DNA of 64,000 bases from a bacterium (lineage in GTDB: Bacteria > Zhuqueibacterota > Zhuqueibacteria > Residuimicrobiales > Krinioviventaceae), in assembly GCA_963693055.1 (NCBI GenBank), contig OY843751.1, positions 2,560,001 through 2,624,000 on the forward strand, read 5' to 3'. Of the stretch, positions 1 to 22,582 are shown piece after piece. Position 1 is the stretch's first letter. Every line of letters begins with the position of its first letter. The translations under genes and the position numbers were made by a program. Below the pieces are notes generated by a model that saw nothing but the letters and a program-made list of their open reading frames with translations, was not told the DNA's origin and made no database searches.

Positions 1-1621
1 CAATGACAAATAAATCGTCTCCACCAGCATAGATGACTTGTAAATTTTTTTTAGATCCTTCTGGATTTAAAAATGAATAGCTTTTATTGGTTTTACTGCA
101 TAATGCATTCAGAAATAATTTGAAATAGTAATTCAGATTTCGGGAAAGGTTTGACAGGCTTTCAAAAGTTAAATTATTGCCAAATCCTTTTTGCATGATT
201 TTTCCCAGGTTGTCAACGTCCATACGCAATCCTGCAACATATTTCACACCTGTTGCAGTTTGAGAAAGCAAATCTATTCCTGCAACACTATCATCTCTAA
301 GGGAGGCAAGAGCTTCTTCCAGGTACTTTTTATCAGCCAATTCAATTTGAGCTTGAAGAGCAATCTTTTCTTTTTGAATTTCCTTTTTTATTGCATCGGG
401 CATGTCTTTGATTTTTCTTAAATAAGTTTTACTGTAAACAGGCAGAGTATGCTCAGATAACTCATTTATGATATCAAAAGAGCCTTGATAAATAATGAAT
501 TTTAGATTACTGTTATCCTCTTTTCCATCACTTAGTTTATAATATTTTTCGTCAATTTGTATTGAATCAGAGCTTTCATTGTCTGTTGCATATATATATT
601 TGACATTTGGTATCTTGTTGCCTAGTTTTGACAATTTATCACAAAAAGGACATCTTGCTAATCCTGCTTCTTCATCGAGTATGAGGTTTGCCTTTGTATC
701 GTCTCTGGTACAAATATCACAATGCATAAAATGTGGGTCATTTTTATCTATCCATTCAAACTCGCCTTGTTCAATTAGGCTTTTGAATTTTGCTTGTTTT
801 TTCTCAAAGATTTTTAATGAAATTTGGTTTAATAACTCATCCAAATTGTTCTCGATTTGAGTTTCCTCACACTCAATAGCATCTATAGACACATATAAAA
901 TTCCGTTAAATTCATTATATAACCATTTGTTGATTCTGTAATCAATTTCATTAATAAGTTCTTTATAATTTTCAGGTTTACTTGCATAAAAATAAATACT
1001 TCCCCCGCCATTCATAAGCACATTGACTTGGTGAAGATTGAATTTCTCCATAACTGTTTCAATTAAATGCCAAGATAATAATTCAATATAAAATGATCGT
1101 GCCCTTAAATTTTTCAATGCACCGCTGGATGTGATATTATAAATGAAATTTTGTATTCCGGAAAGGTCAACATTGATTAATAAATTTCCATTATGATTAT
1201 GGTGTGTCGCATTGTAATCAATTACAGCTTTAGCGGCTTTGATTTTATATGCATCGTAAATTGAAATATTTTCATTTTGTTGTGCAGGTAGATTCCCTCC
1301 ATACATTTCTAAAAGGAAGAAAAGTTGAGAGCAATTTAATGATTCAAGATATGATTGATCAAATGCCTTTACATTAGTTGCAATGTCCATTATAAATTGC
1401 TGTTTTTCGGTATCAAACATCTGGTCTTGTTTGAGTTGAGGATAATATGGCTCAAATGTTAAACGATATGGAGGTACGTAATAAGGACTGTCTTGATCAT
1501 CTTTAAAACTTACTAGATTAAATATAGATCGCAAATAGTTGGGTGTAGATTGTTCACACCAGCTTTTTATCTCTTCAAGTCCTTGAATAAATGTTGGTTT
1601 TAATATATCATTCAAATCCAA
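1..1621 (-). CDS. cas10: Type III-A CRISPR Cas10/Csm1 (runs off left edge; apparently HD-less)
   Basis: Not in the ORF track because it has no stop in the window. Manual translation from TTG at 1621 (GGAGG upstream) gives LRSIF, ISIYDAYKIKAAKA, DLSGIQNFIYNITSSGALKNLRARSF, a CDIC...CPFC zinc finger, LRMDVDNLG and IYAGGDDLFVI. First and last motifs are in the same frame. Confidence 0.93.
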   Translation of the reverse strand, partial: MDLNDILKPTFIQGLEEIKSWCEQSTPNYLRSIFNLVSFKDDQDSPYYVPPYRLTFEPYYPQLKQDQMFDTEKQQFIMDIATNVKAFDQSYLESLNCSQLFFLLEMYGGNLPAQQNENISIYDAYKIKAAKAVIDYNATHHNHNGNLLINVDLSGIQNFIYNITSSGALKNLRARSFYIELLSWHLIETVMEKFNLHQVNVLMNGGGSIYFYASKPENYKELINEIDYRINKWLYNEFNGILYVSIDAIECEETQIENNLDELLNQISLKIFEKKQAKFKSLIEQGEFEWIDKNDPHFMHCDICTRDDTKANLILDEEAGLARCPFCDKLSKLGNKIPNVKYIYATDNESSDSIQIDEKYYKLSDGKEDNSNLKFIIYQGSFDIINELSEHTLPVYSKTYLRKIKDMPDAIKKEIQKEKIALQAQIELADKKYLEEALASLRDDSVAGIDLLSQTATGVKYVAGLRMDVDNLGKIMQKGFGNNLTFESLSNLSRNLNYYFKLFLNALCSKTNKSYSFLNPEGSKKNLQVIYAGGDDLFVI

Positions 1622-1640
1622 ATTAATTACCTCCATATAG

Positions 1641-2627
1641 TCATTCTGTAATAGTTACTCTTATTTTCCCCAACCCAAAACTTGTCCCTTTGCCGATGTG
1701 GAGGACCTGGCTCTGCAGCAGAAGGGGAGTGAATCCATTTATGTTGCCGGCAAGAAGGATATCGCCGATAAAGCCGCCGATCTCCATTTTTGTGTTTTGC
1801 CGGGAGCTGTACCGGTGCCAGTCCTGCCATTTCAGATGCGGGTCCATAATTGCCACTTCATTTGCCTGGACAAGATAGGGGTGGAAGTGCCAGTCGATTT
1901 CATTTTCCGGAGCGTAGAAATGCGCGAGCTCTAAAAGGCGCCGGAGCATTTTAAACACCAACAGTCGGAAAGAGAAATCCATTATATATTGGTCTTCGTA
2001 TTTTAATCGGGTAGGCGTGAGAAACCGGACTTGAACCTGGTCGTGCTCCGAATCCTCATAGTGCGGATGAGTGGGGATTGCCTGGGCGCAGAGGGATTCA
2101 GTTTCTCCTTTGTAGATCAGTGTTTCGGTAAAAGTGTTTTCTGCCAGGGAATGTTGTTCCGGATTTATCCAATAAACATTATGGAGTTGGAACGGCAATC
2201 GCTTTGATGAAAGTCCCCGTTTGGCCATGAGACTGATGGAGTAAATAATGTATGGATAAAGCGCTCCAATATTACCGAGGAGCGTCAGGGTAAAGCTGAA
2301 CGTATCGCCCTGGGCATACTCGGTTTTTTGATCAAAAGCGTCTATGATGTATGGCCGGGGAGAGGTTGGTAATTTGCTTAAAAAGGGCGGAGGGGTTCCC
2401 TCGACATAAGTCTCAAAAATTTTTGTGTAGGTACACTGGCTCCGGAACAGGCAGGATTGACAGGATTCCTGTTTTTTCTGAATGCAGACAGTCCGTTTTA
2501 ACGCACTGCCAAATGCTCCCCTCAGCATGGATCCCTTAATCCTGGGCAGTGTGCATACCTGTTCGGCCTGAAGAACGAATTTCAGTTTCAAATAGGGAAT
2601 AATAGGAAGACAGTAATCCACGGTCAT
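1641..2627 (-). CDS. cas6: CRISPR pre-crRNA processing endoribonuclease Cas6
   Basis: GSMLRGAFG at the N-terminus, CxxC cluster, FLTPTRLK, and the C-terminal glycine-rich loop HIGKGTSFGLG; lies directly upstream of cas10. Confidence 0.93.
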   Translation of the reverse strand: MTVDYCLPIIPYLKLKFVLQAEQVCTLPRIKGSMLRGAFGSALKRTVCIQKKQESCQSCLFRSQCTYTKIFETYVEGTPPPFLSKLPTSPRPYIIDAFDQKTEYAQGDTFSFTLTLLGNIGALYPYIIYSISLMAKRGLSSKRLPFQLHNVYWINPEQHSLAENTFTETLIYKGETESLCAQAIPTHPHYEDSEHDQVQVRFLTPTRLKYEDQYIMDFSFRLLVFKMLRRLLELAHFYAPENEIDWHFHPYLVQANEVAIMDPHLKWQDWHRYSSRQNTKMEIGGFIGDILLAGNINGFTPLLLQSQVLHIGKGTSFGLGKIRVTITE

Positions 2628-2975: not shown

Positions 2976-3008
2976 CAATCCCATCGTATTGATTAGGTCT
3001 ATTTACAG
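2976..3008 (-). CRISPR. Orphan CRISPR repeat (33 of 37 nt)
   Basis: caatcccatcgtattgattaggtctatttacag is identical to the array consensus except for the missing leading gtct. Confidence 0.9.
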
Positions 3009-3772
3009 AGAAATGCATGGTTCTTTACTATGAGGTAGAGAAGGGTAGCGGCTTTTTCTTCAAAGCTGGGGTACAAATCCCTGTCTCCCAATGACTGACG
3101 GATTTGAGTGATAGCACTCTTGAACCCGTCACCCCGTTCATGTCCAAATACAGAGGAGTTAAAATCGCTTCGCATTTGATCAATAACGGCCATATAGTCT
3201 TTGTATGCCGGGTAGACAACGGATTTTTCCGTTTTACCTTTTTTATCCAGGGATTCATGATCATAATCGTCTAAAAGTTTCAGACCCTCTGCATACAAAT
3301 TTAACCAGTCGTAATCCTTGTTCGATGCTTTTTGCTCTATAGCCCGACTTATAATATGAATTCCATCCTTAAGATGTTGAACTTCTTGTTGTTTCTGTGC
3401 CAGTCTTTTTTCATTGATGGTATACCCTTGTACTAACAATTCTCTCAATCTTTTAGTTGCCCATTGACGGAATTGAGTACCTCGTTGTGACTTTACTCGA
3501 TAACCAACTGATATTATGACATCAAGATTGTAAAAAGCCACAGGTTTATCTGAATTTGCAATATGCATTTTTTGCATATTGCTTTTTTTTTCAAGTTCAT
3601 TTTCTTGAAATATATTATTCAGATGGCGGGAAATCACTGATTGATCTCGTTGAAACAACTGTGTTAATTGCTCCTGATTGAGCCAAACTGTATCCTCATT
3701 AAAACGAACTTCAACAGCAGTTTCGTTATCATTTGTTGTATAGATTTCAATTTTGTTTTCAGTATTATCCAT
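2999..3772 (-). pseudogene. RhuM-family protein with Fic/Doc domain, 3'-truncated by a CRISPR repeat
   Basis: RhuM motifs (TVWLNQEQL, YNLDVIISVGYRVKSQRGTQFRQWAT) are followed by LYPSFEEKAATLLYLIVKNHAF. The expected xDGNKR is replaced by repeat-derived LCK*. Likely start is ATG 3772. Confidence 0.88.
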
Positions 3773-3865
3773 TATGTGTCTTGTAAGATTAGAGTCGTGA
3801 TGAATGAGCCGTACATACAAGGTTATTTAACAAACTATTTGGAAACATTCAAGGGTATTTTGAAA

Positions 3866-5296
3866 CAGGGTACCCCCGATTTTTTTATTCGAGGGCCAAA
3901 AATAATTGATTTTTGTCACCGGCATGATTATTACACTTTAATTTTCTGAGCTTTATATTGGGTAAAATGATCCTTAATGCCTTTGCCAGTTTATAATAAA
4001 CAAACCCAATAAACTCGTTTAATTTCCTTCTATACACCAACGGAGCTTGAGATTGATCTAAAATATGTAAACAAATATTATCCAAATGACAATAGATAAA
4101 ACTCATGACATTCCAAAACAGGGCATTAAAATTTTTTAGCGCAACATACCTTTTAAGGCAAATGTCTTCAAGATGATAATCATTTTTTATTTGACGATGT
4201 ACCTCTTCAATTTTCCACCGGTAACCATAGCCTTCCATGGTAATCTCTATGGCCTCACGTTCAGTCTCTGCCGGTATAAAGCTTAAAAACCAGCTTTTGC
4301 CTTTGCCAGGTTCAGTGACTGAAATCAGCCATAATCCGGTGTTCATTGGGCCATCCCCATACTGCTTTGGCAGATATACCTTACGGGCACCGCATTGAAA
4401 ACATCGCTTTATCAGCCTGTTCCGGCGTTTTTTCTGCACGGTAATTTCAGTACTGGGACGGATTTTTTCGGCATATTTCTTTAAATTCTTCTTTACTCCT
4501 TGAACAAATATATCCCGGTACCCGGTTTGCCGTATTATAAAGTGTTGTTTTTGCTTAATCCATTTGTTCATCAGTTTGCTACGATCACCTCCGCGATCAT
4601 AAACAACTATCTGTTCTCCATGAATATGTTCTCGAATCGTGTCCACGGATTCGAGGATTTTCTTGTTCTCTGAAATACCTTTGCCTTCTTCCTGATCCGT
4701 CGCCCAAAGCGTACTCACCAGCGGCATGATGGATGTACCGGTTTTATCAACTCCAATGATATTCAGTTGCCAGTATCCATTCCCTAGTTCTTTGGTACTA
4801 CCATCATAAACACGATCAAGCCCTTCCATCTTTTCCGCATAAGGCTTGATTATATCACTCATATCTGCTATCAAGTATTTCGAATCCGAAAACCTTCTTT
4901 TGTTTATTTTCAGATGACTAATGGTTAATTCTCTGTCAAATCCTGGGCGGCCCAAGTGGCTAGACATTCGTTCTGTTGTCTTTTTTAGGCTCGTCTCTTC
5001 CTTTAGGGTTGATGCGATTTTATTTAAATGTACATGCCCGGAGCAAAGTATCCCATAATGCATGTCTCTGATAAATTTATAGTCCGGTCGGTTGAATTCT
5101 GCTTGATATTTCGCTGTCACTTGATTAAGTTTTACTTGGACTCGTTTTGTGATGTCCATGGGTTGCCTCCTATATTATGGTCTGTCAACTATAATGAGGC
5201 AACCTTTTTTTATTTTTACAAGCTTTTTTTGCTTCTATCTCCATTATTTTTTATTACTTACAGTAATATGATTTGTGATTTTTCGGGGGTGTCCTG
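3866..5296 (-). mobile_element. IS4-family-like insertion sequence, 1431 bp
   Basis: Imperfect terminal IRs CAGGGTACCCCCGA (3866-3879) and TCGGGGGTGTCCTG (5283-5296); 10-bp direct repeat TATTTTGAAA at 3856-3865 and 5297-5306. Confidence 0.92.
3885..5159 (-). CDS. DDE transposase (IS4 superfamily)
   Basis: IADMSD, VYDRGGD and the YREK-like YGYRWKIEEVHRQIK signature. Confidence 0.92.
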   Translation of the reverse strand: MDITKRVQVKLNQVTAKYQAEFNRPDYKFIRDMHYGILCSGHVHLNKIASTLKEETSLKKTTERMSSHLGRPGFDRELTISHLKINKRRFSDSKYLIADMSDIIKPYAEKMEGLDRVYDGSTKELGNGYWQLNIIGVDKTGTSIMPLVSTLWATDQEEGKGISENKKILESVDTIREHIHGEQIVVYDRGGDRSKLMNKWIKQKQHFIIRQTGYRDIFVQGVKKNLKKYAEKIRPSTEITVQKKRRNRLIKRCFQCGARKVYLPKQYGDGPMNTGLWLISVTEPGKGKSWFLSFIPAETEREAIEITMEGYGYRWKIEEVHRQIKNDYHLEDICLKRYVALKNFNALFWNVMSFIYCHLDNICLHILDQSQAPLVYRRKLNEFIGFVYYKLAKALRIILPNIKLRKLKCNNHAGDKNQLFLALE

Positions 5297-5332
5297 TATT
5301 TTGAAAGGGGGAATACATTTTGTGTGAAAAAT

Positions 5333-5894
5333 AATCCCATCATAGTTAATAGGTCTTTCCAGTCCATTATCATGGATAAAATGTCAGGTCGTTCAAAAGG
5401 TTTTGGGTCTCAATCCCATCATAGTTACCAGGTCTTTTCCAATCTTGTTTGAGGGGCTCCTGATCTTGCAAAAACTTATGGTCTCAATCCCATCGTATTG
5501 ATTAGGTCTATTTACAGTAGGCTATTTCGAACAAGACGGCCAGACGCGAGCACAATTGTTGTCTCAATCCCATCGTATTGATTAGGTCTATTTACAGCTA
5601 TTAGATAAAGAGGGTAGTATGAAAAAGAAAGCTGGAATAGTCTCAATCCCATCGTATTGATTAGGTCATTCCACGTGAGACGTGAAACGTAAGACGGTAA
5701 ACGATCTTTTGACCTTGCGAAAATGTCAAAGAACGGGGGAGTTGTCAGTCATCGGTTATCAGTTTTCAGAACCACCCGGGGGTTCGTTGTATTCCATATT
5801 TCTTGAGCTGAGCGTCAGTCGGTCCCTGAGTAGACCGCCGCCAGGCGGACGTACCGAAGGGCAATCCCATCGTATTGATTAGGTCTATTTACAG
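5333..5894 (-). CRISPR. CRISPR array, 37-bp repeat CTGTAAATAGACCTAATCAATACGATGGGATTGAGAC (minus orientation)
   Basis: Repeats at ~5333-5363 (degenerate), 5407-5443 (variant), 5481-5517, 5561-5597, 5640-5674 (variant end) and 5862-5894 (lacks 4 nt). Four spacers of 37-43 nt plus one ~190-bp interval. Minus orientation inferred from the ATTGAGAC 3' handle, degenerate repeats at left, and cas genes on minus. Confidence 0.92.
5674..5861. repeat. Composite insert in the array: 7-bp CGTGAGA tandem, copy B of the 2873 segment, REP-like hairpin
   Basis: cgtgagacgtgaaacgtaagacgg; then cggttatcagttttcaga...gtattccat; then gtccctgagtagaccgccgccaggcggacgtaccgaaggg with a CCGCC/GGCGG stem. Confidence 0.65.
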
Positions 5895-6262
5895 TCAATC
5901 AGATTGGATATTACATCATAACCGCATTTGTGTCATTTGTTCTCACCAACCTGGGATGGATACTATTCAAAAAGGACAAGACAGAACCGGTTGAAAAAGA
6001 CCATCTTGACCATCCTTGTCAAAAAATTCTGATATTGGAACAGGATTTTAAGAACCACAAAGATGTGGTCAAGAACCGGATTGATTTGAATGAACGTCGG
6101 TTGAACGCACACGCGAAAGACCTGGATGTATTGCGGGAAACCATCGTGAGACAGGAACAGAACAATAACCATCTGAACGAGAAAGTAGATGAAATCAAGG
6201 CCGAGATTAGTAAAATAACAGATTTTTTATACAGTGGTAAATGGAAATCGGTTAAGTCATGA
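5895..6262 (+). pseudogene. Small phage membrane/coiled-coil protein (holin/XhlA-like), 5' end lost at the CRISPR repeat
   Basis: The frame NQIGYYIITAFVSFVLTNLGW is open right from the repeat edge with no ATG/RBS; hydrophobic helix followed by coiled coil. Confidence 0.55.
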
Positions 6263-8837
6263 GCAACCAGGTACTGAAAATCACCCACGTTAAAGGCCTG
6301 GTGACCCACGCTGATCCGCAGGACATACCGGTGGATGCTGTGAGCCGTTTGGCCAATCTGCGGCCGGTAAACGGTAAACTGGTGCGGACATTCGGATACG
6401 GACAGAACTTTTCCCGGGACCGGCTGGCAGTACTGCGTCAGGAGGGCAAAAGCGTATACTGGGACGATTCCAAAGTGTGGGACGATGGTGACTATTGGCT
6501 GGACAATACCGACATTGATGAAAGCCTGGGCGATCCTTTTGACCATGTCATTGTATTTGAAAACCGTAACCTGGGCTACTGTCCTTATGCCACCGGTGAA
6601 GGTTATGTTATTATTGCCTATCTGGTGGATACGGACACCGGCCTGGTGACCTTGAAGTACTGGGACGGGGATTCCTGGGAACTGTTGGCATCCACCGGTT
6701 TGATGGTCAATGCCCTGGGCAGTTATTACCACCATAAAGGCAACAATCCGGTCATTCTGCACAACGAGATATTGAGGATTTTACCGGGAGCAACCGGCAA
6801 GATCAACGGTAATAACGCCGAAGGCATCTGGATCGGATATATAGACCGGGATATCTTTGACGAACACTATACCGCAGGGACATCGGAAGAAGTGAGTGAA
6901 GAGACCGCGGATTATGTCAAAGGCTTTTACAATTACAGCAACAGCGTACCGGCGCCGGATATCTCTGCATCCGGATTGGACCCGGTATTGACCGATGAAC
7001 CGACCGGCGGCAGTCTGAACCCGGACGGGAATGAACTGGTCTATTTTTACAGGTTATCCTATGTCTATGACGGGGTAAACGAAAGTGCCTTGTCCGAGAC
7101 CCTGTCCAAATCTTTTAAACAAAACACATTTTTGAAAATGGCTTTGACCTTTACCAAAGCCGAACACAATAAACGTATCACCGCAGTAAAAATTTATCGA
7201 AGCAGCTATGCCGATGCCGGATTTCAGCAAATCCACACCCTGGACTTGACCCGCAAGACCGATAAACTGAAAAGCGTGGACGGTATGGCCAGCGGCCTGA
7301 GCCGGTTTTACATCCCGGGACTGGCCTATTATAATTTCGATAATACCGAAAGCTACCGAATCGGTGTCCGGGTACCGGGCGATACCGGCGCATTCACCTA
7401 TAACGCCATCTCACCGCCAAGCGGTACCGGTAATGTCATATTTGTAACATCCAGTACCCTGAGCGGGGATTACTGGGACTATGAATGGATCCTTGAATAT
7501 TATGACGCCAGCTGGGTGCCAATTGACAGTGGTACATCCGGTGTGTTTGCCGGTACCCATACCTTTATATCCACAGAAGTTGACCTTGGTAATGAAAACC
7601 AGGCCGGAGGAATACTGTACTGGCCATCCATTGCTTACGAGATCAAGGAATCGGTGAACCGTGCCATCCGAATATACATTGCCATACATATACCTATACC
7701 GACCAGACCATGAACATTTACTCCATTACAACCGGTTTGTACTGTTATTATAAATATCCGGGAGTTGGCAAAGAAGTACTGTACTTTTTTGATACCGGGC
7801 TGTTGGCCGGTGAAGCGCATCCTTATGCAACCGAGGTTTCCAACAAGGTCAACGGTAAATTTGCCATCTATGCGTACGGCAGACTGTTCCAGTACAGTGT
7901 AGTGCTTGACCCGGATTACAAACAGGAAGTGCATATGGACTAGCTGACCTTTTCCGAACTGGGACAACTGGATGTAACACCCGTCGGTAATGCCATTGTG
8001 CCGCCGGACCGCACCGGTGGAGCCGGTACCGGTATGGCTATGGCTTTTGGTTCCATTATACTGATGAAAAAACAGGCCCTGTTCCGGCTGGACATCAACG
8101 ATCCCGCTGATCCGGTAACCTGGTCCATCAAGGAAGCCAATTTCAGCCGCGGCAATGTCGCGAAAAAATGTTTTGTGCAGGTAGGTGAAACATTGTACAT
8201 CTGTTCCCATGACGGCATCTATTCAATCGACCTCAATGTACTGACCGCGGCAGACGAAACCCCGATGCTGCATAACCGCATATCCGAAGACATCAATGAT
8301 ATATACATGTCTCTGAGCGATTCCTCCGAGAAACCTTACATCTCTGCCGGATATGATCCGTTTCACAGCGAGATCGTGTTCCAGTTAAAACCCGGACAGA
8401 CCTATGCTTACAATATCCTGGAACAGAGCTGGCGCCAGAGCGATACTGACGCGGACATGGCCCTGGCAGTCAATGACCAGGACGGCAACCTGTTGATTGT
8501 GGACAATACCCGACAGCTGCTGTTGTCACCGGTGGTGAAAGAGGAAAGCGGGTTCTGTGTGCGCAGCAAGAACGTTCTGCTCTCATACGAACGGGCCAAA
8601 GTGGTGCGTTACGTCAAGGTGCGGTACCGGTCGGAGGAGAAACTGATCATCAATCTGTACGCCGATGGTAACACCGAAACCCCGGTGAAAAGCGGGACAC
8701 TGTCGGAATTGTCCGAACCCGGCTGGAAAGGTGTGTCGCTGCGGTATTATTGTCATTCATTTTACATTGAAATCTGTTCCGAGAGCGAGGGCGTCCCGGA
8801 AACCGAAATATATGAAATCGTTGTTGAACACGATTAA
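6259..8837 (+). pseudogene. Large phage tail/stabilisation-type protein, fragmented
   Basis: ORFs 6259-7713, 7710-7943 and 7998-8837. Probable frameshift near 7700 and an in-frame TAG at 7941-7943 (7710 and 7998 share a frame). Beta-rich C-terminal part typical of podoviral stabilisation proteins. Confidence 0.6.
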
Positions 8838-8851
8838 AGGAGATTTTAACC

Positions 8852-9526
8852 ATGGCCGATGGTGATATAACCAAAGATTTATTGAGTGAACTGGCATTAC
8901 AGCTTGAAGACGCGGACGAAGTGAAATTTACCCAGGCTGCCAAGCTCCAGGCCCTGAACCGCTCACAAGTGAGGGTGGCCCAGATGCTGCACGACGCCTA
9001 TTTGACTGAATTCCAACATGTGGATGAAGACGTGGACGCATCATCCAGGATCATTGATATATCTCAATTAAACGAGGGAAAAGGCGTTTTCAGGGGTGGA
9101 GAAGGCATTGTCCGGGTGCGGATCAAGATCGGTGGTGATGACGCAAAATTGAAATGGGCCACGGAACTGGATTTTAAAGAGGACATCAAGCGCACCCAGA
9201 ACACGCTATTGGCCGGATCGGATACCAATCCGCTGTATTATGTGTTTAATGGGCATATTTATATTCTGGTGTCCACCTATGACGAAACTACTGCCAATGT
9301 GTACTATTTGCAAATGCCGCCAAACATGTCAGAGAGTGTTGATCCGATCCTGAATCCTTCCTTACACCAGATACTGCTGGACCTTGCCGAATCCATCTGC
9401 TGGAAAATGGACAATCAACATAACCGCAGTGCAGAGGCCCGCACCAGTGCTTTTGAAGAGATTAAGGTTTTGAACGGCCGGTACACCAATCCCGAAGGCA
9501 TCGGCACAAGCAGCCGGAGGAGATAA
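8852..9526 (+). CDS. Phage head-tail adaptor/tail tubular-like protein
   Basis: AAGGAG RBS; helical N-terminus (LQALNRSQ) and YYLQMP...PILNPSLHQILLDLA resemble adaptor proteins; position in the module. Confidence 0.55.
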   Translation: MADGDITKDLLSELALQLEDADEVKFTQAAKLQALNRSQVRVAQMLHDAYLTEFQHVDEDVDASSRIIDISQLNEGKGVFRGGEGIVRVRIKIGGDDAKLKWATELDFKEDIKRTQNTLLAGSDTNPLYYVFNGHIYILVSTYDETTANVYYLQMPPNMSESVDPILNPSLHQILLDLAESICWKMDNQHNRSAEARTSAFEEIKVLNGRYTNPEGIGTSSRRR

Positions 9527-9531
9527 ATCGC

Positions 9532-10305
9532 ATGGACCCCATTACAATCGGCGCATTGGTCAAAGGCGGCAGTGCTCTCGGCAAATACGCCTATAACAAA
9601 TGGTTCAACAAACAGAAGAATTTTGATGATACCCCGGGCGGCCGTCGAATGAAACTGCTGGCCAAAGAAGGAGTGTACAATCCCCGCGTCACCCGCACTA
9701 TACTCGGACAGGTGGGCAAAGCCACCGGCAGTACTGCCCAGATTGCCAAAACCAACCTCAAAGGTAATTTGATCGCCAGCGGTATGGAAAACAGCATTGC
9801 CGGACAGGGACGTATAGCCAGTATCGACAGCCAGCGTATGGAGAAAATAGGGGACGTGGCTGCCGATCTGGCCACCAAAAACGAAATGTCCAAAGTGGAA
9901 GCGCAGGACAAATACACCATGGCCAAACAGGGATACCAGGACAGAATCAAAGCCATGGAACAGGAAAATACCGGCAACCTGGTGAGCGGACTCATCAATA
10001 CCGCGGGCAGTTATGTCATGGGCAAGGCACAGCAGACCGGTATGGAAAATATTGATTTTTCGGATCCTTCTTCCCTGACCCAGTGGGTTGCTTCACAACC
10101 TGACCAGGCCAAAGCCATGTCCCAGCTCCGGGACCTGGCTTATTCCAGTTATTACGGCGGTAAAGGCGCCAGTGCGGTGAGTGAACAGGACATATTGGGA
10201 CTGCTACAAAAAGACCCGGCAAGGGCCGGACAGACCATACAGATTTTGAATGAACTGGGCATGCTGCCGAAACGGATACTGAACTATTTAAAAGCCGGGG
10301 AATAA
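9532..10305 (+). CDS. Putative phage internal virion/DNA ejection protein
   Basis: MDPITIGALVKGG start, Ala/Gly/Gln-rich helical composition, downstream of tail genes. Confidence 0.5.
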   Translation: MDPITIGALVKGGSALGKYAYNKWFNKQKNFDDTPGGRRMKLLAKEGVYNPRVTRTILGQVGKATGSTAQIAKTNLKGNLIASGMENSIAGQGRIASIDSQRMEKIGDVAADLATKNEMSKVEAQDKYTMAKQGYQDRIKAMEQENTGNLVSGLINTAGSYVMGKAQQTGMENIDFSDPSSLTQWVASQPDQAKAMSQLRDLAYSSYYGGKGASAVSEQDILGLLQKDPARAGQTIQILNELGMLPKRILNYLKAGE

Positions 10306-10310
10306 CACAC

Positions 10311-10394
10311 ATGGCAGAGAAACTGGACCCGAAAAAGCTTGAGAAACTGGTCGGTCTGTTCCAGTCCCCGGTAGACGGCCTGGAGGCCGCATGA
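10311..10394 (+). pseudogene. 27-aa stub of the next phage gene
   Basis: MAEKLDPKKLEKLVGLFQSPVDGLEAA* begins 5 nt after the previous stop. Confidence 0.4.
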
Positions 10395-10567
10395 AATACA
10401 AAGCCAGGGAAAAGCTTTCGGCGGTGGTGCGAGTATACGTATTGGGAGAAAAAGTCGCGGTCGTCTGCCGCGACTTGCACATCTCCCGCCAAACCTGGTA
10501 CCGCTGGGAAAAAGAGTTTCGCTCTGCAATTGGAAAGATTTGGGGTGGGCTGAAAAAGTTGAATTAA
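10391..10567 (+). CDS. Small helix-turn-helix protein (58 aa)
   Basis: Manual translation MKYKAREKLSAVVRVYVLGEKVAVVCRDLHISRQTWYRWEKEF..., a transposase-type HTH; ATGA overlap with the stub. Confidence 0.6.
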   Translation: MKYKAREKLSAVVRVYVLGEKVAVVCRDLHISRQTWYRWEKEFRSAIGKIWGGLKKLN

Positions 10568-10912
10568 ATCAAATGGTTGAATAGAAAATCTGATTCCCTT
10601 TTTTATTTAAAATAATTCATATTTCAATTGCATGTTTCTACGAAAATACATTTATTAAAATATTCAAACATTAAACTGATACGGGGTATCTTGGGTGGAA
10701 AACTTTTATATGTTATGACGATCTATACTCATGTACCTAACAATGGCGATTAAGGTATTCGCAGCCCAGTTGATGATCTGTAGCAAAGTGTAATCTGGAA
10801 TACAAGTCGTATAACATAAAATTATGGTCATTGTTTTTTTATGATAACATCATGTTTTTATTGTAATTGAGTCAGAATATCGTGATTTGTTAAACGACAA
10901 GTATTTGCATTC

Positions 10913-10952
10913 TATAATTGGTTATCAAACTCGTTAAATACTATGTTAGAAT
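10913..10952 (+). promoter_or_regulatory. Putative -10 box (TATAAT 10913-10918) and attI-like crossover core GTTAGAAT (10945-10952)
   Basis: GTTAGAAT is the reverse complement of ATTCTAAC, which starts attC1; no attC hairpin upstream of it. Confidence 0.55.
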
Positions 10953-10969
10953 GAAAAAGGAGAAATCGA

Positions 10970-11872
10970 ATGTCAGAGGACAATCAGAAAACTACCAAGT
11001 TCGATGCAGCAGCATCCAAACTCAGATCGGTGACTAGCGGAGCCCTGAGACTTACGGTTATCATTCTCTTTGCCGTCGTGGCATGGCGAATAGCTTGGTC
11101 GAATTTCAGTTTGGATCTCAGTAAATTCGATTTTACTGATCTTCTGGCTATGATTTTAGCTCTCTTTGCGATGGGGATGTCGGTGGCTTTTTACTTTAAG
11201 TCCACGGATTCAAGCAATCAATTCTACGACAACATTTACAATTTCACGCAAAAGACATCTGAAATTCTTGGCCGTATTGAAGAACGATTTGGTGAGCGAC
11301 TTAAGCATCTTGACGAAGGCTATGGGAGAATGCAGTCGCAGTTCGATGGAATTGCAAAGACACCAGGCGAGATTGAAAAGGAAGTTAAAGAAACAGAGGG
11401 AAAAGAAGAGCAAGAAAAAGAGAAGCTCGAAGAAGCCAAAAAGGCAATGCAAGAGATGATGGAGACGCTTGCTGAAAAAGCAAAATTACAGCAAAAAGAA
11501 AAAGAGGAATTCTACCAGAAGATGGGTGAACTCGCAACCGAGAGAGACTTGGCACAACAAAAACTTCGCGAGCTTGAAGAAGATCGTGACGGGATGAGGC
11601 AACAACTTCATATGATGGAGCGGGACATGATGGAGGATCCAGAGCTACATAATCCAATAGTAATGGAAATACTTCGTCACCCTGAAATACGACATCTACT
11701 TCGAGATGGTACTCCTGCCCGCATCATTCGAAGACAGGCTCAGCGTCTTTTTTCTGAGATGCCGATACAATTTCTCAAACAACTGCGCGAAGCCGGAATA
11801 ATCAACGAAAATAACGAGCTAACCACCGCTGGCGGGCTAATGCTGCGATCGATGTCACGACGATATAGATGA
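10970..11872 (+). CDS. Cassette 1: two-TM, coiled-coil protein with C-terminal winged-helix-like tail
   Basis: AAGGAG RBS, two hydrophobic helices, E/K-rich coil, LREAGIINENNELTTAG. Confidence 0.8.
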   Translation: MSEDNQKTTKFDAAASKLRSVTSGALRLTVIILFAVVAWRIAWSNFSLDLSKFDFTDLLAMILALFAMGMSVAFYFKSTDSSNQFYDNIYNFTQKTSEILGRIEERFGERLKHLDEGYGRMQSQFDGIAKTPGEIEKEVKETEGKEEQEKEKLEEAKKAMQEMMETLAEKAKLQQKEKEEFYQKMGELATERDLAQQKLRELEEDRDGMRQQLHMMERDMMEDPELHNPIVMEILRHPEIRHLLRDGTPARIIRRQAQRLFSEMPIQFLKQLREAGIINENNELTTAGGLMLRSMSRRYR

Positions 11873-11875
11873 AGA

Positions 11876-11927
11876 TTCTAACAAAGGCATCCACACGTAC
11901 GCGCGCCGGTGATGCCAGCCGTTAGCT
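11876..11927 (+). other. attC site 1 (52 bp, unusually short)
   Basis: TTCTAAC...GGCATC..GATGCC...GTTAGCT. Confidence 0.8.
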
Positions 11928-11944
11928 TTTATGGAAGATAGACT

Positions 11945-12598
11945 ATGGAAATTGCTAAAATTATTCTAGAATACTTAAAGGTTACTATCTGGCCTATCAC
12001 AACCTTTATATTATTACTAATTTTCAAAAAAGATATTTGTAAAATTTTAATGCGATTGAAAAAAGCAGATTTACCTGGCGGTATATCTCTTGAAACATTT
12101 CCAGAACAAATTGAAGAAGCAAAATCTTTATTAATAGAAGTTAAGGAAGAAAAGAAAGAAGAAGATAAATTAAGAAAACAAATATATGCTACAATTCCAT
12201 TAACAGAAGCAAACGCAAAAATGATAACATTAGGTCTTGCACCATCACCTTCAGGTCTTGAACTTGATAAATACAAACAATTAGCTGAACGAGATCCAAA
12301 CTTAGCACTTGCAGGACTCAGGATGGAACTTGAAATAATGTTGAAAAATTTGGCAAAAGGCTATAAAATCAATATTAACAAAAGGGCTTCAACGACGAAC
12401 ATTACTAAGGAATTGAAAGAAAAAAATGCTATAACTAAAAATCAATCTGATTTAATACACACAATTATAAATTTAGCAAATGCCGCTGTTCATGGTGTTA
12501 AGGTTACAAAGTCTCAGGCCAATGATATCCTACAAATATCAGAAACATTAAGAGATCAATATATTAATTGGCTGAGTTGGGGCTTTACTGATAAATAA
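11945..12598 (+). CDS. Cassette 2: N-terminal TM protein with DUF4145/HEPN-like C-terminus
   Basis: WPITTFILLLIFK TM helix; LRMELEIML...INLANAAVHG resembles a HEPN fold with a degenerate RxxxxH. Confidence 0.6.
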   Translation: MEIAKIILEYLKVTIWPITTFILLLIFKKDICKILMRLKKADLPGGISLETFPEQIEEAKSLLIEVKEEKKEEDKLRKQIYATIPLTEANAKMITLGLAPSPSGLELDKYKQLAERDPNLALAGLRMELEIMLKNLAKGYKININKRASTTNITKELKEKNAITKNQSDLIHTIINLANAAVHGVKVTKSQANDILQISETLRDQYINWLSWGFTDK

Positions 12599-12601
12599 TA
12601 A

Positions 12602-12725
12602 AGCTAACAATTGTTTCCAGCGGATCGCTAAAGCGATCCACTAAATTCCACGTGGACGTGGAATTCGAAATACAACATTCGGGACGCTTGCTCTTGGCTC
12701 GCGACCGCTGAAACAGACGTTATAA
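12602..12725 (+). other. attC site 2 (124 bp)
   Basis: AGCTAAC...TGTTTCCAGCGG/CCGCTGAAACA...GTTATAA. Confidence 0.9.
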
Positions 12726-12758
12726 GTAATCTCGAGCCTCGCGCAAAGGAGTATAAAT

Positions 12759-13318
12759 ATGAAATGTTCCGTATATATAGCAACAAGTGTAGATGGGTAA
12801 TTGCAACACCTGATGGAGGTGTTGATTGGCTGCATACAGCAGGTAATTTAGAAGCTGACATGGGCGATGAAGATATGGGGTTTCGTGATTTTATGGACTC
12901 CTTAGACTGCATGATAATGGGGCGTAAGTGCATGGAAATGATTTCCAATATAAACTTAACCCCAGAACAATGGATTTATGGTGACATGCCTATTTTTGTA
13001 CTCAGCAATACAGTTAAAGAGGCTCCTGAAAATCTTCGAGGGAAAGTTGAAATGTATTCCGGCAATATTAAAGAATTAACTTTAAAGCTCGAGAAGAACG
13101 GATATACACACGCATACATTGATGGTGGTTCCACTATTACATCGTTTCTAAATCATGGCCTAATTAGCGAAATGATTATAACCAAAGCCCCTGTACTTTT
13201 AGGCGAAGGTCTTCCCCTTTTTGGAAAAATCAACAAAAAGCTAAAGTTAGAAAATACTGAAGTGAAATCGTTCCCAAATTACTGGTATCAACTTAAGTGT
13301 AGCGTAAATTACTTATAA
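12759..13318 (+). pseudogene. Cassette 3: dihydrofolate reductase/RibD-C family protein with early frameshift
   Basis: The true start ATG 12759 gives MKCSVYIATSVDG* (TAA 12798). The rest (IATPDGGVDWL, IMGRK, YIDGG, PVLLGEGLPLF) is in another frame, consistent with a 1-nt deletion. Confidence 0.85.
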
Positions 13319-13384
13319 CAAATGCATGCACCGGAGCTTCCCGCCGCTGTCGCTCTAGGAACCCCGGTGATGCTGGTGTTAGGC
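13313..13384 (+). other. attC site 3 (72 bp)
   Basis: TTATAAC...GCATGCACCGG/CCGGTGATGC...GTTAGGC. Confidence 0.9.
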
Positions 13385-13403
13385 TTTAACAGGGAGGTGG
13401 TTT

Positions 13404-13877
13404 TTGATCCAGATCTACAAGAATCTTTATGTTGGTGAAGATTTTGAGTGTTTTGATGATAAAGAGAAGTGGGTCACTGTCCATGCTTGTAAATCTCCAT
13501 GTCATCAGCGAATCATAGGCTATAGAGGTAGTCTTCCATCGAACCATCCACACTATTTAGTTTATGAAAATGATAGAAACTTGTATTTAAATATTATTGA
13601 TCCCCCCATCCCACTCTTCAAACTAGAACTTTTTACAACTTTTCTTAAGTTCGGAGCGAAGCATTATAAAGAGGAAAAATTAATTTTCATTCATTGTAAT
13701 CGAGGTGAGTCTCGAGCACCATCGTTAGCACTCCTCTTTTTAGCAAAACATTTAAAGGCTATTGACAACAATTCATACCAAACTGCGATGAGTGAATTTG
13801 CTGCAATTTACCCCCAGTATAATCCAGGAAATGGGATAAGAAAATTTCTGACTGAAAACTGGACAATAATAAAATGA
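13404..13877 (+). CDS. Cassette 4a: dual-specificity/tyrosine phosphatase-like protein
   Basis: IYKNLYVG N-terminus and catalytic HCNRGESR (HCxxGxSR); GGAGG RBS with TTG start. Confidence 0.88.
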   Translation: MIQIYKNLYVGEDFECFDDKEKWVTVHACKSPCHQRIIGYRGSLPSNHPHYLVYENDRNLYLNIIDPPIPLFKLELFTTFLKFGAKHYKEEKLIFIHCNRGESRAPSLALLFLAKHLKAIDNNSYQTAMSEFAAIYPQYNPGNGIRKFLTENWTIIK

Positions 13878-14596
13878 TAATGATTTTTTTTGATGAAACT
13901 GGTGATTCAAAATTTAAAGAATATTTTGGCATTTGTTGCGTCCGGATTAATTCCGCATTCTATACACAAGTTAAAAGAGAATTTCAAAGTATCCTTGAAT
14001 CAAACCAATGGGACACAAATATTGAGTTCAAAGGATCGCATTTATTTTCAGCAAATAGTGGCGATACTAATATTACTATCGATCAGAGGATCAATATAGC
14101 TGAATCCTTAATAGGTTTAAATACTGCGAATAAAAATGCACGGATTTGCTTCTCCTATTTTAGCAAAGTATCAACCGACCATAGAAGTGATTATTTAGAA
14201 TATTTGCCTATATTATTGGATAAGGCCCTTCCAAAAGTAAATCATAAAAACGGGAAGGATATTGTTACAATCCATTGCGATAATAGAAGCGATATTTCAA
14301 TCAATGAGGTCCGAGAGAGCATTATGCCGATCATATCATCAAATGAATATACATTATTTGAAGATGTCTCGATGCCGAATTCTCGATTTGAAACTGTAGG
14401 CTTATTATACGCTGATTTAATCGGATATTTGATCGCCAGAGTTGAAACAATTAGTTCAGATGCGGAATTGTTCGAAAATATTCCACAGGATCAATGGGAA
14501 AACAATGGTAAGGTTAAAAAATTGAAATCATCAACAAAGCTATTGCAGCAGATAAAAAATATAAATTTATACAAAGTTAAAGGTAGTCAAGGCTAA
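13874..14596 (+). CDS. Cassette 4b: DUF3800-like (RNase H-like fold) protein
   Basis: FFDETGD N-terminal motif, EFKG, and LLYADLIGY; ATGA overlap with the phosphatase gene. Confidence 0.7.
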   Translation: MIMIFFDETGDSKFKEYFGICCVRINSAFYTQVKREFQSILESNQWDTNIEFKGSHLFSANSGDTNITIDQRINIAESLIGLNTANKNARICFSYFSKVSTDHRSDYLEYLPILLDKALPKVNHKNGKDIVTIHCDNRSDISINEVRESIMPIISSNEYTLFEDVSMPNSRFETVGLLYADLIGYLIARVETISSDAELFENIPQDQWENNGKVKKLKSSTKLLQQIKNINLYKVKGSQG

Positions 14597-14719
14597 CAAG
14601 CTGCTGCACGCGACGGCTGGCGCCGTCGCTTTTGACAGCTTCGCTGTCAAAAGCTTTGGTAGATTTCGTGGCTTATGCTGATTAGCTTCCAGCCGCCGCG
14701 CGTGAGCAAAGTGTTAGCT
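14591..14719 (+). other. attC site 4 (129 bp)
   Basis: GGCTAAC...TGCTGCACGCG/CGCGTGAGCA...GTTAGCT, with internal hairpin CTTTTGACAGC/GCTGTCAAAAG. Confidence 0.9.
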
Positions 14720-14750
14720 GCTCAAGGCATTTCCAAAACAAGGAGATTTA

Positions 14751-16421
14751 ATGAAATTACCAGAACCACAAACAAGAACATTTTCTAGTCTAATCTCAGA
14801 AATAGAGAAAGGCCAGATTAAAATCCCGCAGTTCCAAAGAGACTTTGTGTGGACAATTCAAAAGTCTGCTGGGTTAATTGATAGTGTTATTAAAGGTTAT
14901 CCGATAGGCACTTTTATTTTTTGGAAAACGAAGGACAGGCTGCGCTCTGTTAGGGATATAGGAATTCAAGTTTTGCCGGATCCTGAACTGGGTGAATCTG
15001 TAGATTATGTACTTGATGGACAGCAACGATTAACAAGTTTGTATGCTTGCTTGAAAGGGGTAAGCATAAAACGAGAAGATAGCAAGAAGATTGATGACTT
15101 TTCAAAAATATATATAAATTTAGAATCTGATGAAGATGAAAAAATAGTTACAACGGAAGTTGATGAAGAAAAAATCGATCACCATATAAGTATTCTTGAT
15201 TTGCTTACGGGAGATTTCACCGTTTTAGCATCTTATCCTGCTGAATACCATGAAAAATTAAAGCTCTACAAGAATAGGATTGAGAGCTACCAATATTCGA
15301 TTATTCAAGTTAAAGAAGCACCCATTGATATTGCAACAGAAATATTTACAAGGATTAACGTTGGAGGAAAACCCCTTTCCTTATTCGAAATAATGGTTGC
15401 AAAAACATTTGATTACGAAAAGGATTTTGATTTATCTGAGAAGTTCGAACAACTAATTGATAATCTTAAGCCTCACGATTACGAAACAATATCTGATGCT
15501 ACAGTATTGCAAGTTGTTTCAATGATTATTTCTAAAGAATGCAAGCGTCAAGTAATATTGAAGATAGATAAAACTAAGTTTATTGATACCTGGGATAGGG
15601 CTGTTGACTCAATTGAAAGAACGGTTGAATACTTTAAAAGTTACTACAGAATCCCTGTTTCTCAGCTACTTCCATACAATGCATTAATAGTTCCTTTTTC
15701 ATATTTCTTTTTTCATCATAAAGATAAACCTACAGGGGATAAACAAAAATATCTACAAGACTTTTTTTGGCGATGTTCGTTATCAGGTCGTTATTCATCT
15801 TCTGTAGAGAGTAAATTAGCTCAGGATATAAAGAGAATTGAAAATATTCTTGAAGATAAATTGCCGATTTATGATTGGTCAATTGATTCCTCTAAGGATT
15901 TTATTATTGATAATGGCTGGTTTAGTGCGGGAAGGAGCTATATTAAGGCAATTTTATGCATATACGCATATCATCAGCCGAAATCATTTATTGACAACTC
16001 TCTGGTGAACATTAGTAATTACTGGCTAAAACAGGCTAACAGTAAGAACTATCACCACTTTTTTCCTAGGGCGTATCTAAAAAAGCAAGGAGAGGAGGAA
16101 CACTATATTAACCATATATTGAATATCACAATAGTGGATGATTTTTTGAACAAGCGTGAAATAGGTGCAAAAGCACCTTCAAAATACATGAGCCAGTTCA
16201 AAAAGATTAATCCTGAAATAGAGTCCTCAATGAAATCACATCTTATTAATGATTTATATGGTTTTGGTGTTTTGGAGGATGACTATGATTCTTTCTTCGA
16301 AAGTAGAGCAAATTTGCTCAATAAGGAAATAGAAAAACGAATCATAAAGCAAGAAGTTGATAGAAAATCGCAGCCAGATATTCAGGATGATTATGAGGAA
16401 GAACCAACTGTTACAGAATAA
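14751..16421 (+). CDS. Cassette 5: DUF262 + HNH-like protein (GmrSD type IV restriction-like)
   Basis: IPQFQRDFVW, LIDSVIKGYPIG, VLDGQQRLTSL, FTRINVGGKPL and C-terminal HHFFPR...NITIV..LN. Confidence 0.9.
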   Translation: MKLPEPQTRTFSSLISEIEKGQIKIPQFQRDFVWTIQKSAGLIDSVIKGYPIGTFIFWKTKDRLRSVRDIGIQVLPDPELGESVDYVLDGQQRLTSLYACLKGVSIKREDSKKIDDFSKIYINLESDEDEKIVTTEVDEEKIDHHISILDLLTGDFTVLASYPAEYHEKLKLYKNRIESYQYSIIQVKEAPIDIATEIFTRINVGGKPLSLFEIMVAKTFDYEKDFDLSEKFEQLIDNLKPHDYETISDATVLQVVSMIISKECKRQVILKIDKTKFIDTWDRAVDSIERTVEYFKSYYRIPVSQLLPYNALIVPFSYFFFHHKDKPTGDKQKYLQDFFWRCSLSGRYSSSVESKLAQDIKRIENILEDKLPIYDWSIDSSKDFIIDNGWFSAGRSYIKAILCIYAYHQPKSFIDNSLVNISNYWLKQANSKNYHHFFPRAYLKKQGEEEHYINHILNITIVDDFLNKREIGAKAPSKYMSQFKKINPEIESSMKSHLINDLYGFGVLEDDYDSFFESRANLLNKEIEKRIIKQEVDRKSQPDIQDDYEEEPTVTE

Positions 16422-16426
16422 ACTGC

Positions 16427-16507
16427 AGCTAACAATCACATTCACTCGGACAGCAAAAAGCGCCGCTTCGCTCTGCCTTTTGCTGCCGGTGATGTGAAGC
16501 GTTATAA
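16427..16507 (+). other. attC site 5 (81 bp)
   Basis: AGCTAAC...TCACATTCAC/GTGATGTGA...GTTATAA. Confidence 0.9.
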
Positions 16508-16693
16508 AGAACACACACTAAAGTAACAACTCTTCCAACATCCCCCTTATTTTTCCTAAACTTACCTCATTTTTCACACCAATTCTGTCACTCCTTGCAC
16601 TACAATATATAGATTATTCTTGCATCAAAGGAACCATATATAATATATTTCATTTTATTCCATAAACATAGGTGTAAACGAAAGGAGAATCCT

Positions 16694-18360
16694 ATGGCTA
16701 AAGTGGATGAATTTCTGTTATCACTGCATGCAAAAGAAATCATTACCAGTTTGCGGTCTATGAAAACGGCAAATAAAAAGTCATAACCATCCGGGATGAC
16801 GCGCTGGTGCGCGGATTAAAGAATATGGGAGCTGAAAAAGGACTGCGTTTTCTGGACAATATCAATACGTGGTTACGGGCGGTCAATACCATGCTCAATC
16901 CGGAATTTATACTGACCAATTTTGAGCGGGACTTGCAGACCGCCCTGATCAACATATCCGGTGAACAAGTTAAAGGACTGAAACGTAAAGTTGTTAAAGA
17001 CATTCCCAAAGCCATGAAAGGGATCATGTCCGAACTGCGGGGCGAAGGAGAAGGAGAGTGGGCAGACCATTTTCAGTCTTTTAAAGCTGAAGGCGCGAAA
17101 ACCGGCTGGTATGACAATACATCATTGGAAGAAAAACAGAAACAGTTTGAAAAGAAAATCCGGTTTTACAGCAAAGGCAGCAAGTGGGCCCAGATGGCCA
17201 AAGCCACAACGGATTTTATCTGGGATTTGAACGAGACTGTTGAAAACGCCGTCCGTCTGGCCGCTTACAAGAACGCCATTGATGCCGGGTACACCCGGAA
17301 GCAGGCCGCCAATCTGGCCAAAAACCTGACCGTCAATTTTAACAAAAAAGGCGAAATTGGTGCTGCACTTAATAGTTGGTATCTTTTCAGTAATGCCGGA
17401 ATCCAGGGCGGCGCTCGCCTGGTCACTGCTTTAAAGAGCCCTAAAGTACAAAAACTGGCCGTCGGACTGGTAGCGTTCAGCTTTTTACTGGATATGTATA
17501 ACCGCTGGTATGATGAAGACGAATATGAGAAAATCCCGGAATACATCCGCGACACCAATTACGTGCTCATGATGCCTAATGGCAAATATCTCATGATCAA
17601 ACTGCCCTATGGATACAATGTGTTTAACGTCATGGGCAATGCCTTTGCAGAAGTTTATGATATGATGGGTGAAAAACGGACCACATCCCGGGAGTTGCTG
17701 CACCAGGGCGGTCGTATTATGAGTAATTTGGTTGACGCTTTTAATCCACTGGGAAACAGCGGTTCAGTGATACAGTTAATCATGCCTACAATATTCGATC
17801 CTTTAGCCCAGATCGGGGAGAACAAGAACTTTTTTGGCGATCCTATCAGAAAAGACCAACCGGCTTATGGTACCAAAGTACCGGAAAGTCAATTGTATTT
17901 CAAGGGTGTAAATCCCTTAACCCGGGCTTTTACGGATTGGTTAAACCGCGCCTTTGGCGGTTCCGAGGTGAAACAAAGCAGCAAATATACAGATATTAAT
18001 CCTGAAAATATCGATCATTTGATTGAATATATTGGCGGTGGTTTGGGCCGCATGCTGGCAAACACTATAACAACCGGTATGTCCCTAATCAAGGAAAGCA
18101 AACTGCCGGACCTTAACAAAATCCCCTTTGTCCGCAAGGTGGTAGGAGAAACAACGGACTGGACAGAAACACAGAAACTGTACGGCATGTTGGAGGAAGC
18201 AGGTCGTACCGAATACACAGAAACCGAAAAGGAGCAATTTTACAACGATTTGGCCGCGGCTTTTGAAAATGGGTTGATCGACAAGACACAATATCGTCGA
18301 GTCAGGAGTATGTTCAATAACGCCCAGGCCAAACTGCAGCAATCCCTACAGCCGCAATAA
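16694..18360 (+). pseudogene. Remnant of a phage large polyvalent protein (LPD38-like C-terminal domain)
   Basis: NPEFILTNFERDLQTA, AANLAKNLTVNFNKKGE, LFSNAGIQG, LPYGYN, NKNFFGDPI. Upstream broken pieces: MAKVDEFLLSLHAKE, then a frameshift and ENGK*KVITIRDDAL. Confidence 0.75.
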
Positions 18361-18458
18361 GGCTTTATATTATTGATCACTCTTTTCTCTGACGATTGAC
18401 AACAACCGGATAAGCTGAACGCATATCCGGGAACCTGTTCAACATTGGAGAAAAACCC

Positions 18459-21400: not shown

Positions 21401-22277
21401 AGGAGGGGCAATACTAATCCAGAACAAACAGGCCGTCAATTCCGTGGTCCGTAATTGCGAGTTTTACCAGCGTTATGGGACAAGGGCCAATGGAGAAGCG
21501 ATATCTGCGGAATGGGCGGCCGGTGCGGTTTAATTTCCCGGGTCAGATTATTCTTTTGTTGTTTATGGCTGCAAGTTTGACAACTGGGATTATGCCATTA
21601 ATCATAACGGTTCAGTGCTGCATAGTTACTATGAAAACAATGTGTTCAGTTTTTGTGATTATGGTTTGTATCTTTACGCCAGAAGTTCATCAAATGCCAC
21701 CAATTTTCATCTTGAAAGCAATACCTTTATGGGCTGTGATGATGATGTCTATTATAACAACAGCAGTACAAACATTCTAAACGTTTGGGACAATCAATCA
21801 GAAGGAAAGAGAAACCGGTCTTTTGCGTCTGGTGACAATTTCAATGTGTTATACCAGCATGCCTATGTCAACTTTTATCTCAACTATGGTACCGACACCA
21901 TTACACCATCCCTGACACAGAATACCTGGGCACGCATTGCGGGACATTCTGGCAGTTATAATTATGGTGGATATGTGGAAGGGGATTCGTGTAAGATCGA
22001 CGCTGATGGATTTTACAAACTGGATGCTACTTTTACCTTTACCGGTACGGCATCTGATGTTTATGAATTTGCACCCATGGTAAGCGGTTCGTTGAATATG
22101 AACTGTGCCGTATCCTGTGCAACAAGCGGGACCGATAAAGTCACTGTATCTATGAATGGAATCCTTATTATAGGTGCTGATCAGTGGGTGAGTATGTGGG
22201 TACGGAATACCGGAGACGGTGACAGTCCAACCATTTTACAATCAAACTGGTTATTGACCAAAATACGGGATAATTAA
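18459..22277 (+). pseudogene. Repeat-rich tail fibre/spike-like protein with N-terminal signal peptide, broken by two in-frame TAA
   Basis: 10-aa AVTTDKIAD-like repeats followed by beta-helix-like domains. ORFs 18459, 21081 and 21615 share one frame, separated by TAA at 21039 and 21531. Confidence 0.75.
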
Positions 22278-22482: not shown

Positions 22483-22508
22483 TTCTTGTTTTTTAAGGCT
22501 TTAAGTAG

Positions 22509-22582
<74 letters not shown>

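Follow-up and report, generated by a model that had tools for sequence, protein, structure and literature searches.

A CRISPR spacer in a reduced type III-A array of a likely KSB1 bacterium points to a Patescibacteria RRM gene

The 64,000-nucleotide stretch of DNA analysed here (the window) contains a small CRISPR array with a spacer that corresponds to the RNP1 region of a Patescibacteria-type RRM gene. The spacer source points to Patescibacteria rather than to the host, a bacterium likely of the KSB1 phylum to judge by the names borne by the nearest relatives of its LeuRS. We read the spacer as an inherited record of contact between a Patescibacteria cell and an earlier KSB1 host, not as active defence, and give this reading a probability of about two in three. 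The features on which the argument draws are as follows.

1..1636, minus strand: 5′ part of cas10/csm1 (783 aa, GGDD intact, no HD domain)
1641..2627, minus strand: cas6, its product 46% identical to the Cas6 of an RT-cas1-bearing locus in the relative G004
2999..3820, minus strand: RhuM-family gene with a lone repeat (2972-3008) at its end
3866..5297, minus strand: insertion sequence (DDE transposase 3885-5159) immediately next to the trailer end of the array
5328..5363, minus strand: terminal repeat on the trailer side, degenerate, of array-A type, hairpin intact
5364..5406, minus strand: RRM spacer, 43 nt; its plus strand is the sense strand of the Patescibacteria-type RRM gene, RNP1 region
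5407..5443, minus strand: repeat of array-A type with two changes, which would supply the 8-nt 5′ handle of the crRNA
5444..5676, minus strand: remainder of array B, with three spacers and three repeats of a second type (5481, 5561, 5640)
5677..5894, minus strand: leader-like unit of ~180 bp (putative leader) and a lone repeat (5858-5894)
5930..22277, plus strand: phage-like structural genes (adaptor, LPD38, tail fibre) and defence-type genes, the cargo of an integrated element
22506..22582, minus strand: tRNA-Met, the integration site of the element

The spacer, whose plus-strand reading is IIMDKMSGRSKGFG, is a CRISPR spacer by definition: it is unique, falls within 30-50 nt, lies between regular repeats and has cas genes adjoining. 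It sits where the original prediction placed it, at 5364-5406 between repeats at 5328-5363 and 5407-5443, and its proposed coding content, the RNP1 region of an RRM protein, is equally borne out. With the peptide pattern IIMDKM[S/T]GRSKGFG, which allows Ser or Thr at one site, all 121 matches checked lie in an RRM-like frame. The peptide continues as FVEM, FVQM, FVEF or FVTM in 120 of them, the remaining one being incomplete, and one related gene was assigned to RRM_1 (E value 1e-21). A chance look-alike can be ruled out: a match with three mismatches is expected ~1e-11 times in 401 genomes, and the reversed-pattern control returned 0.

The predicted crRNA of this spacer is the minus strand, and three features of the locus confirm this orientation. 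The minus-strand repeat hairpin leaves an 8-nt 3′ tail, the usual Cas6 handle; the cas genes lie on the same strand as the predicted crRNA; and among 153 distinct spacers of this repeat family, drawn from the host and four relatives, the plus strand is purine-rich in 105 and pyrimidine-rich in 42 (p = 2e-7). The purine bias is what a plus strand of mRNA sense would give, and the crRNA would therefore be antisense to the RRM mRNA, as originally proposed.

Array B, which includes the RRM spacer, comprises five repeats, with a degenerate repeat at 5640 on its leader side. The two repeats that flank the spacer had been described as sharing deviations from the consensus. Both instead follow the consensus of array A (CATCATAGTT; 20 repeats, genome 2553448-2554955, outside the window), which rules out a special regulatory repeat variant. 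The hairpin of the repeat at 5407-5443 is predicted to be weakened (-1.2 vs -5.6 kcal/mol). Since the spacers next to this array-A-type unit belong to a different repeat type, spacer order need not be chronological: the designation of the RRM spacer as the oldest is right by position, at the trailer end, but not as a statement of age.

Units related to the leader-like unit are found at ~2870-3008 of the window and at genome 2797294-2798413, and a promoter scan of the leader-like unit itself gave no clear minus-strand promoter. Array C lies at a distance of ~230 kb from the cas genes; beside it, repeats of three types are intermingled and several copies of a ~270-bp tandem unit occur (L002 about 9290-11030, genome 2797294-2799027), each with a partial repeat, 180 bp of leader-like sequence, a terminal repeat and zero or one spacer; such units also occupy window 2870-3008 and 5640-5894. 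The arrays look as if they recombine through these leader-like units. When window 5200-5950 and L001:12330-14040 were compared with contigs from three runs of the host's own sample (X1-X3), other contigs were seen to carry related repeats with different spacers, so further arrays of the same repeat family exist in the sample.

The associated type III-A module contains Cas10/Csm1 with GGDD, Csm2, Csm3, Csm4 and Cas6. Beyond the window, its operon extends through csm2, csm3, csm4, a gene for a 304-aa Mrr-like nuclease candidate, a CARF effector, array A and an integrase. An HD-less complex had been predicted, and the Cas10 match indeed begins at model position 91, with no HD pair in the N-terminus. 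As a whole the module (L001:14044-19404 plus window 1-2627) is reduced: the HD domain, csm5 and cas1/cas2 are all missing, with no csm5 match anywhere in the host genome (the control search was positive in 4 of 14 genomes). The 304-aa protein, encoded where csm5 usually sits, has a weak Mrr-type nuclease likeness (atlas score 0.89) that is a lead only. The tail of the CARF protein is TIR- or glycosidase-like, and the effector had 0 matches among solved structures. The locus resembles type III-A (Csm) systems in its cas6, cas10, csm2, csm3, csm4 and CARF effector genes, its 37-nt repeats, its 8-nt handle and its antisense bias. It departs from them in its missing HD domain, csm5 and cas1/cas2, in arrays that mix repeat types, and in the Mrr-like candidate at the csm5 position.

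The module resides on an integrated element of ~30 kb, bounded by the integrase and by 45-bp copies of the tRNA-Met 3′ end (22506-22550, repeated at genome 2552127-2552171). Similarity to a genome of the same genus, G001, begins at tRNA-Met. Several partial copies of the tRNA-Met 3′ end are present in the host, at genome 2551768-2551796 and 2552127-2552171, with at least five in G001 (L172), which suggests repeated integration at this site. The insertion sequence at 3866-5297 has six more copies in the genome. None of 38 candidate Cas10 relatives on viral contigs was confirmed.

The donor search places the spacer closest to cellular genes of Patescibacteria. The peptide pattern matches at least 120 loci in a genome scan that covered 15 of 64 parts, with ~530 estimated in total. 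Among the matches listed, 105 of the 120 loci bear Patescibacteria-group titles; the other 15 are titled as Bacteroidota (4), as other phyla (3) or as unclassified (8). The three loci titled as other phyla, among the matches listed, have Patescibacteria-like RRM starts. Records L009, L119 and L122, with Gammaproteobacteria or Bdellovibrionales titles, contain Patescibacteria-type RRM genes, and mislabelling or binning contamination is possible.

At the nucleotide level, the best identity among the matches listed is 39/43, found in 13 loci, and one genome, G465, of 401 from the family of one top match reaches 40/43 (93%), with 0 in the reversed control. ATP synthase-like genes, judged from translation, adjoin the 40/43 match. 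Both classes of match thus have at least 90% identity to a non-viral region of another taxon, as spacers against foreign prokaryotes do. A perfect protospacer was not found: in the metagenome collection, an exact 41-mer and a five-wobble pattern each returned 0. Over its whole length the spacer resembles Paceibacteria genes, but a target in a conserved motif gives near matches in many lineages and so does not allow the donor lineage to be pinned down.

A virus or plasmid carrying a Patescibacteria-like RRM gene would reduce the spacer to ordinary immunity against mobile elements, which we consider unlikely. Spacers with known targets mostly match mobile elements, according to the available text of PMC12612501, and since for most spacers of the present arrays no target is known, sampling of the local virome is poor. 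Against such a source, 0 of 2.9 million viral contigs (IMG/VR) matched any of three patterns, the degenerate core motif included. Phage and plasmid records held nothing credible, the best phage match being 25 nt or 79% and the best plasmid match 23-27 nt; the T4 matches, 25-nt partial ones only, were rejected as a source. The ATP synthase-like neighbours of the 40/43 match likewise speak against it. Within the collections searched there is no viral or plasmid source, and the predicted cellular RRM target is supported, with cellular RRM genes giving the best matches. The array A spacers had no phage match, and an array C spacer (genome 2798946-2798989, pentapeptide-repeat) that weakly matches pentapeptide genes of Listeria phages over 35-38 nt was not counted, its match being probably of low complexity.

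The three runs of the host's own sample also contain a candidate target. A foreign contig present in all three (49,324 nt in X2) is identical to positions 5375-5405, 31 consecutive bases, and matches the whole spacer at 37/43, with mismatches, by eye, at crRNA position 1 and at five of the last 11 positions. Its flanks continue an open RRM frame (LIT before the core, AFVKY after it), with three amino-acid changes relative to the spacer and an unchanged core. The word depth of the contig is 44 in X2, ~110 in X1 and ~42 in X3 (the last two worked out from tabulated data), compared with ~3-14 for host contigs, word depth being no cell share.

The exact 31-mer was found in 0 of 401 Paceibacteria genomes, 0 of 7 genomes of a small class and 0 of 401 across the phylum (partly overlapping samples); 14 of the 401 Paceibacteria genomes lie within three mismatches of the core. 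The independent-site probability of an exact 31-mer is ~0.001 among peptide-bearing genes and, the number of such genes in the sample being unknown, we estimate the chance of a coincidental identity at a few per cent. The flank resembles a 23-protein AFVKF group, in which the four members that carry a taxon name are Pacebacteria or Patescibacteria, and 21 of 30 residues agree, by eye, with the protein P0251. These ~30 codons suggest a Pacebacteria-like organism. A taxon search with a short motif returned 0 of 251 Patescibacteria genomes, a looser motif 1 of 131, and the contig's own protein is absent among the 120 matches listed. Since six of 43 bases and three amino acids differ, the contig is probably a cross-reactive target rather than the donor. 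Among the 31 distinct type III spacers, one has such a cellular match; no targets of array-A spacers were seen on same-sample contigs (15-19 of 30 bins covered).

An active role as a symbiont sensor is improbable. In this case selection would maintain a crRNA that is actually produced, it would recognise the RRM mRNA at its most conserved stretch across many Patescibacteria lineages during attachment, and leaking RRM mRNA would activate Cas10 and, through the CARF effector, dormancy or death. Consistent with a sensor are the antisense orientation within a repeat family of strong strand bias, the intact GGDD motif of Cas10 and the presence of a CARF effector. Pairing of crRNA positions 2-32 with the same-sample RRM mRNA is predicted to be perfect, and the flank of that mRNA is non-complementary to the handle. 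The depth of the foreign contig against that of host contigs, and the 14 Paceibacteria genomes near the core, fit as well. A sensor, however, requires symbiont mRNA in the host cytoplasm, which is assumed only, and would have to work with a weakened hairpin in the handle-donor repeat and without Csm5. There is no second such match among the array A and B spacers, the spacer was not found in 40 relatives, and random insertions would be antisense half the time. The more far-reaching version, in which a signalling-only, prophage-borne guide captured from RNA serves as a broad alarm for attached ultra-small symbionts through a conserved mRNA stretch and implies cytoplasmic exchange between KSB1 and Patescibacteria, is quite improbable.

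A cellular donor outside Patescibacteria, such as a neighbouring Bacteroidota cell or a previous host of the element, is very unlikely. The element is mobile, and among the matches listed the same peptide occurs in four Bacteroidota-named loci and one unclassified locus with a different N-terminus. These genes, however, differ from the spacer at 8-12 positions, compared with 3-4 in Patescibacteria, again among the matches listed. The repeat family and Cas6 are shared with relatives in the KSB1 phylum, which lack the motif. In addition, type III-A is described as selecting against antisense self spacers in the available text of PMC8860593.

The host genome itself, a single contig rated 100% complete, gives no near-perfect site for the spacer. 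Its one RRM gene is identical at only 30/43, which rules out self origin; the RRM motif was found in 0 of 166 other host-phylum genomes, and the self-derived spacer of the original prediction falls on these counts. The 30/43 match lies within the range of other non-duplicated spacers (62-75% best match in the host genome), and a non-RRM host site fits about equally (13 of 42). Its expectation of 0.03 under a simple base model is in line with distant homology. Every sixth base in the pairing of a type III guide is flipped out. That the guide acts on the RRM transcript of the host itself, sensing it or knocking it down, as first suggested, is the least probable reading of all: crRNA positions 1-15 pair with the host mRNA except at position 6 and Cas10 lacks a DNase domain, but there are 13 mismatches in total with a block at positions 21-26, the sequence tracks the foreign gene and not the host's, and, with the spacer not found in 40 relatives, there is no conserved guide with a fixed host target of the kind that defines a regulatory mini-array.

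RNA as the source of the spacer had also been suggested, with a search for RT-Cas1 elsewhere in the genome as a check. No RT-Cas1 was found in the host, where no RT is fused or adjacent to cas1: the only RT belongs to a retron III-A and the only Cas1 to a type I-B system. The position of this RT beside a PRTase rules it out as a CRISPR RT; the retron (PRTase and RT, L004:6362-8951) lies directly upstream of an umuDC-like pair. Of 166 host-phylum relatives, five carry the repeat family. In two of them, G004 and G040, it is served by a cas1 gene next to the array and an RT gene immediately upstream of this cas1; the remaining three assemblies yielded no cas1. For the two RTs, the highest-scoring models are CRISPR-linked RT models, and the G004 locus is type III-D-like. 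RT and cas1 are separate genes in these KSB1-phylum type III loci (G004 L164:700-2751; G040 L167:11003-13008), the G004 cas1 has an internal stop, and S_4TM and SAVED domains are found among the neighbouring effector genes.

Because both relatives with cas1 beside the repeat family have an RT upstream, capture of the spacer from RNA in an earlier host is plausible, and this part of the suggestion survives even as the host itself lacks RT-Cas1. We place RNA and DNA capture at about even odds. An RT gene adjoining cas1 is a described arrangement of type III loci in the available text of PMC5513706, and G004 and G040 show the same adjacency. Type III spacers are described as entering both ways round, with selection then acting as a filter, in the available text of PMC8860593. 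The host locus lacks both genes, so an RNA origin of the spacer is not established.

Inheritance from an earlier host is the preferred account. A fragment of Patescibacteria RRM DNA or mRNA would have entered an earlier cell, likely of the KSB1 phylum, presumably through cell contact or DNA uptake. An RT and Cas1 module, since lost by the locus or borrowed, would have integrated it, and the spacer would then have been carried along during array recombination on the element. A processed crRNA would be loaded into a Csm complex capable of signalling only, with Cas10 producing cyclic oligoadenylate for the CARF effector, and this signalling would depend on entry of Patescibacteria RRM mRNA into the host cytoplasm. 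Present activity of the spacer is doubtful: the repeat that would donate the handle has a weakened hairpin, there is no Csm5, no companion spacer shares this kind of target, and the target RNA comes from another cell. We infer that the spacer is inactive.

Host spacers directed at Patescibacteria are already known, and the present case adds to such reports. As far as its main text goes, a bioRxiv preprint on wastewater genomes (10.64898/2026.09.16.751625) describes 44 links from host spacers to Patescibacteria, among them type III-E spacers of Ca. Phosphoribacter against Ca. Lutisaccharimonas, with 0 mentions of KSB1. The Phosphoribacter case is similar in its larger bacterium, type III system, ~40-nt spacers and match to a Patescibacteria chromosome (there with 1-3 mismatches). 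It differs in that its targets are repeated ORFs of unknown function rather than a conserved RRM gene, and in that its pairing is backed by FISH, whereas the present one is known from sequence alone. Its system is type III-E; here a likely KSB1 host carries a reduced III-A module on an integrated element. Two subsurface sets described in the available text of PMC12612501 have ~3% of their spacers matching foreign prokaryotes, and such spacers may be undirected by-products. The RRM spacer resembles these in deriving from a chromosome of another phylum (there in the same habitat). Ca. Altiarchaeum, as cited there (Esser 2023), has hundreds of spacers against its DPANN episymbiont, compared with one of 31 here, and a single spacer lends a host-symbiont pairing only thin support. 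From its available text, PMC13059738 concerns a symbiont's own arrays and has no bearing on a host spacer. Neither a KSB1 host nor a conserved core-gene or RRM target was found in the literature searched, although the supplementary tables of the preprint could list one.

The spacer singles out a candidate pairing of a KSB1 bacterium with a Paceibacteria- or Pacebacteria-like cell and makes it testable, with a specific same-sample contig as a candidate for binning and probing. For most Patescibacteria, no host is known. Methodologically, unmatched type III spacers can be translated and compared as peptides, an approach able to reveal cellular donors missed by searches at the nucleotide level. 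Should the spacer be no more than a by-product of DNA uptake, it would add one case to the roughly 3% of spacers that derive from foreign cells. With a type III guide that acts on RNA and a repeat family linked to RTs, the case also bears on whether symbiont RNA may reach the host cytoplasm.
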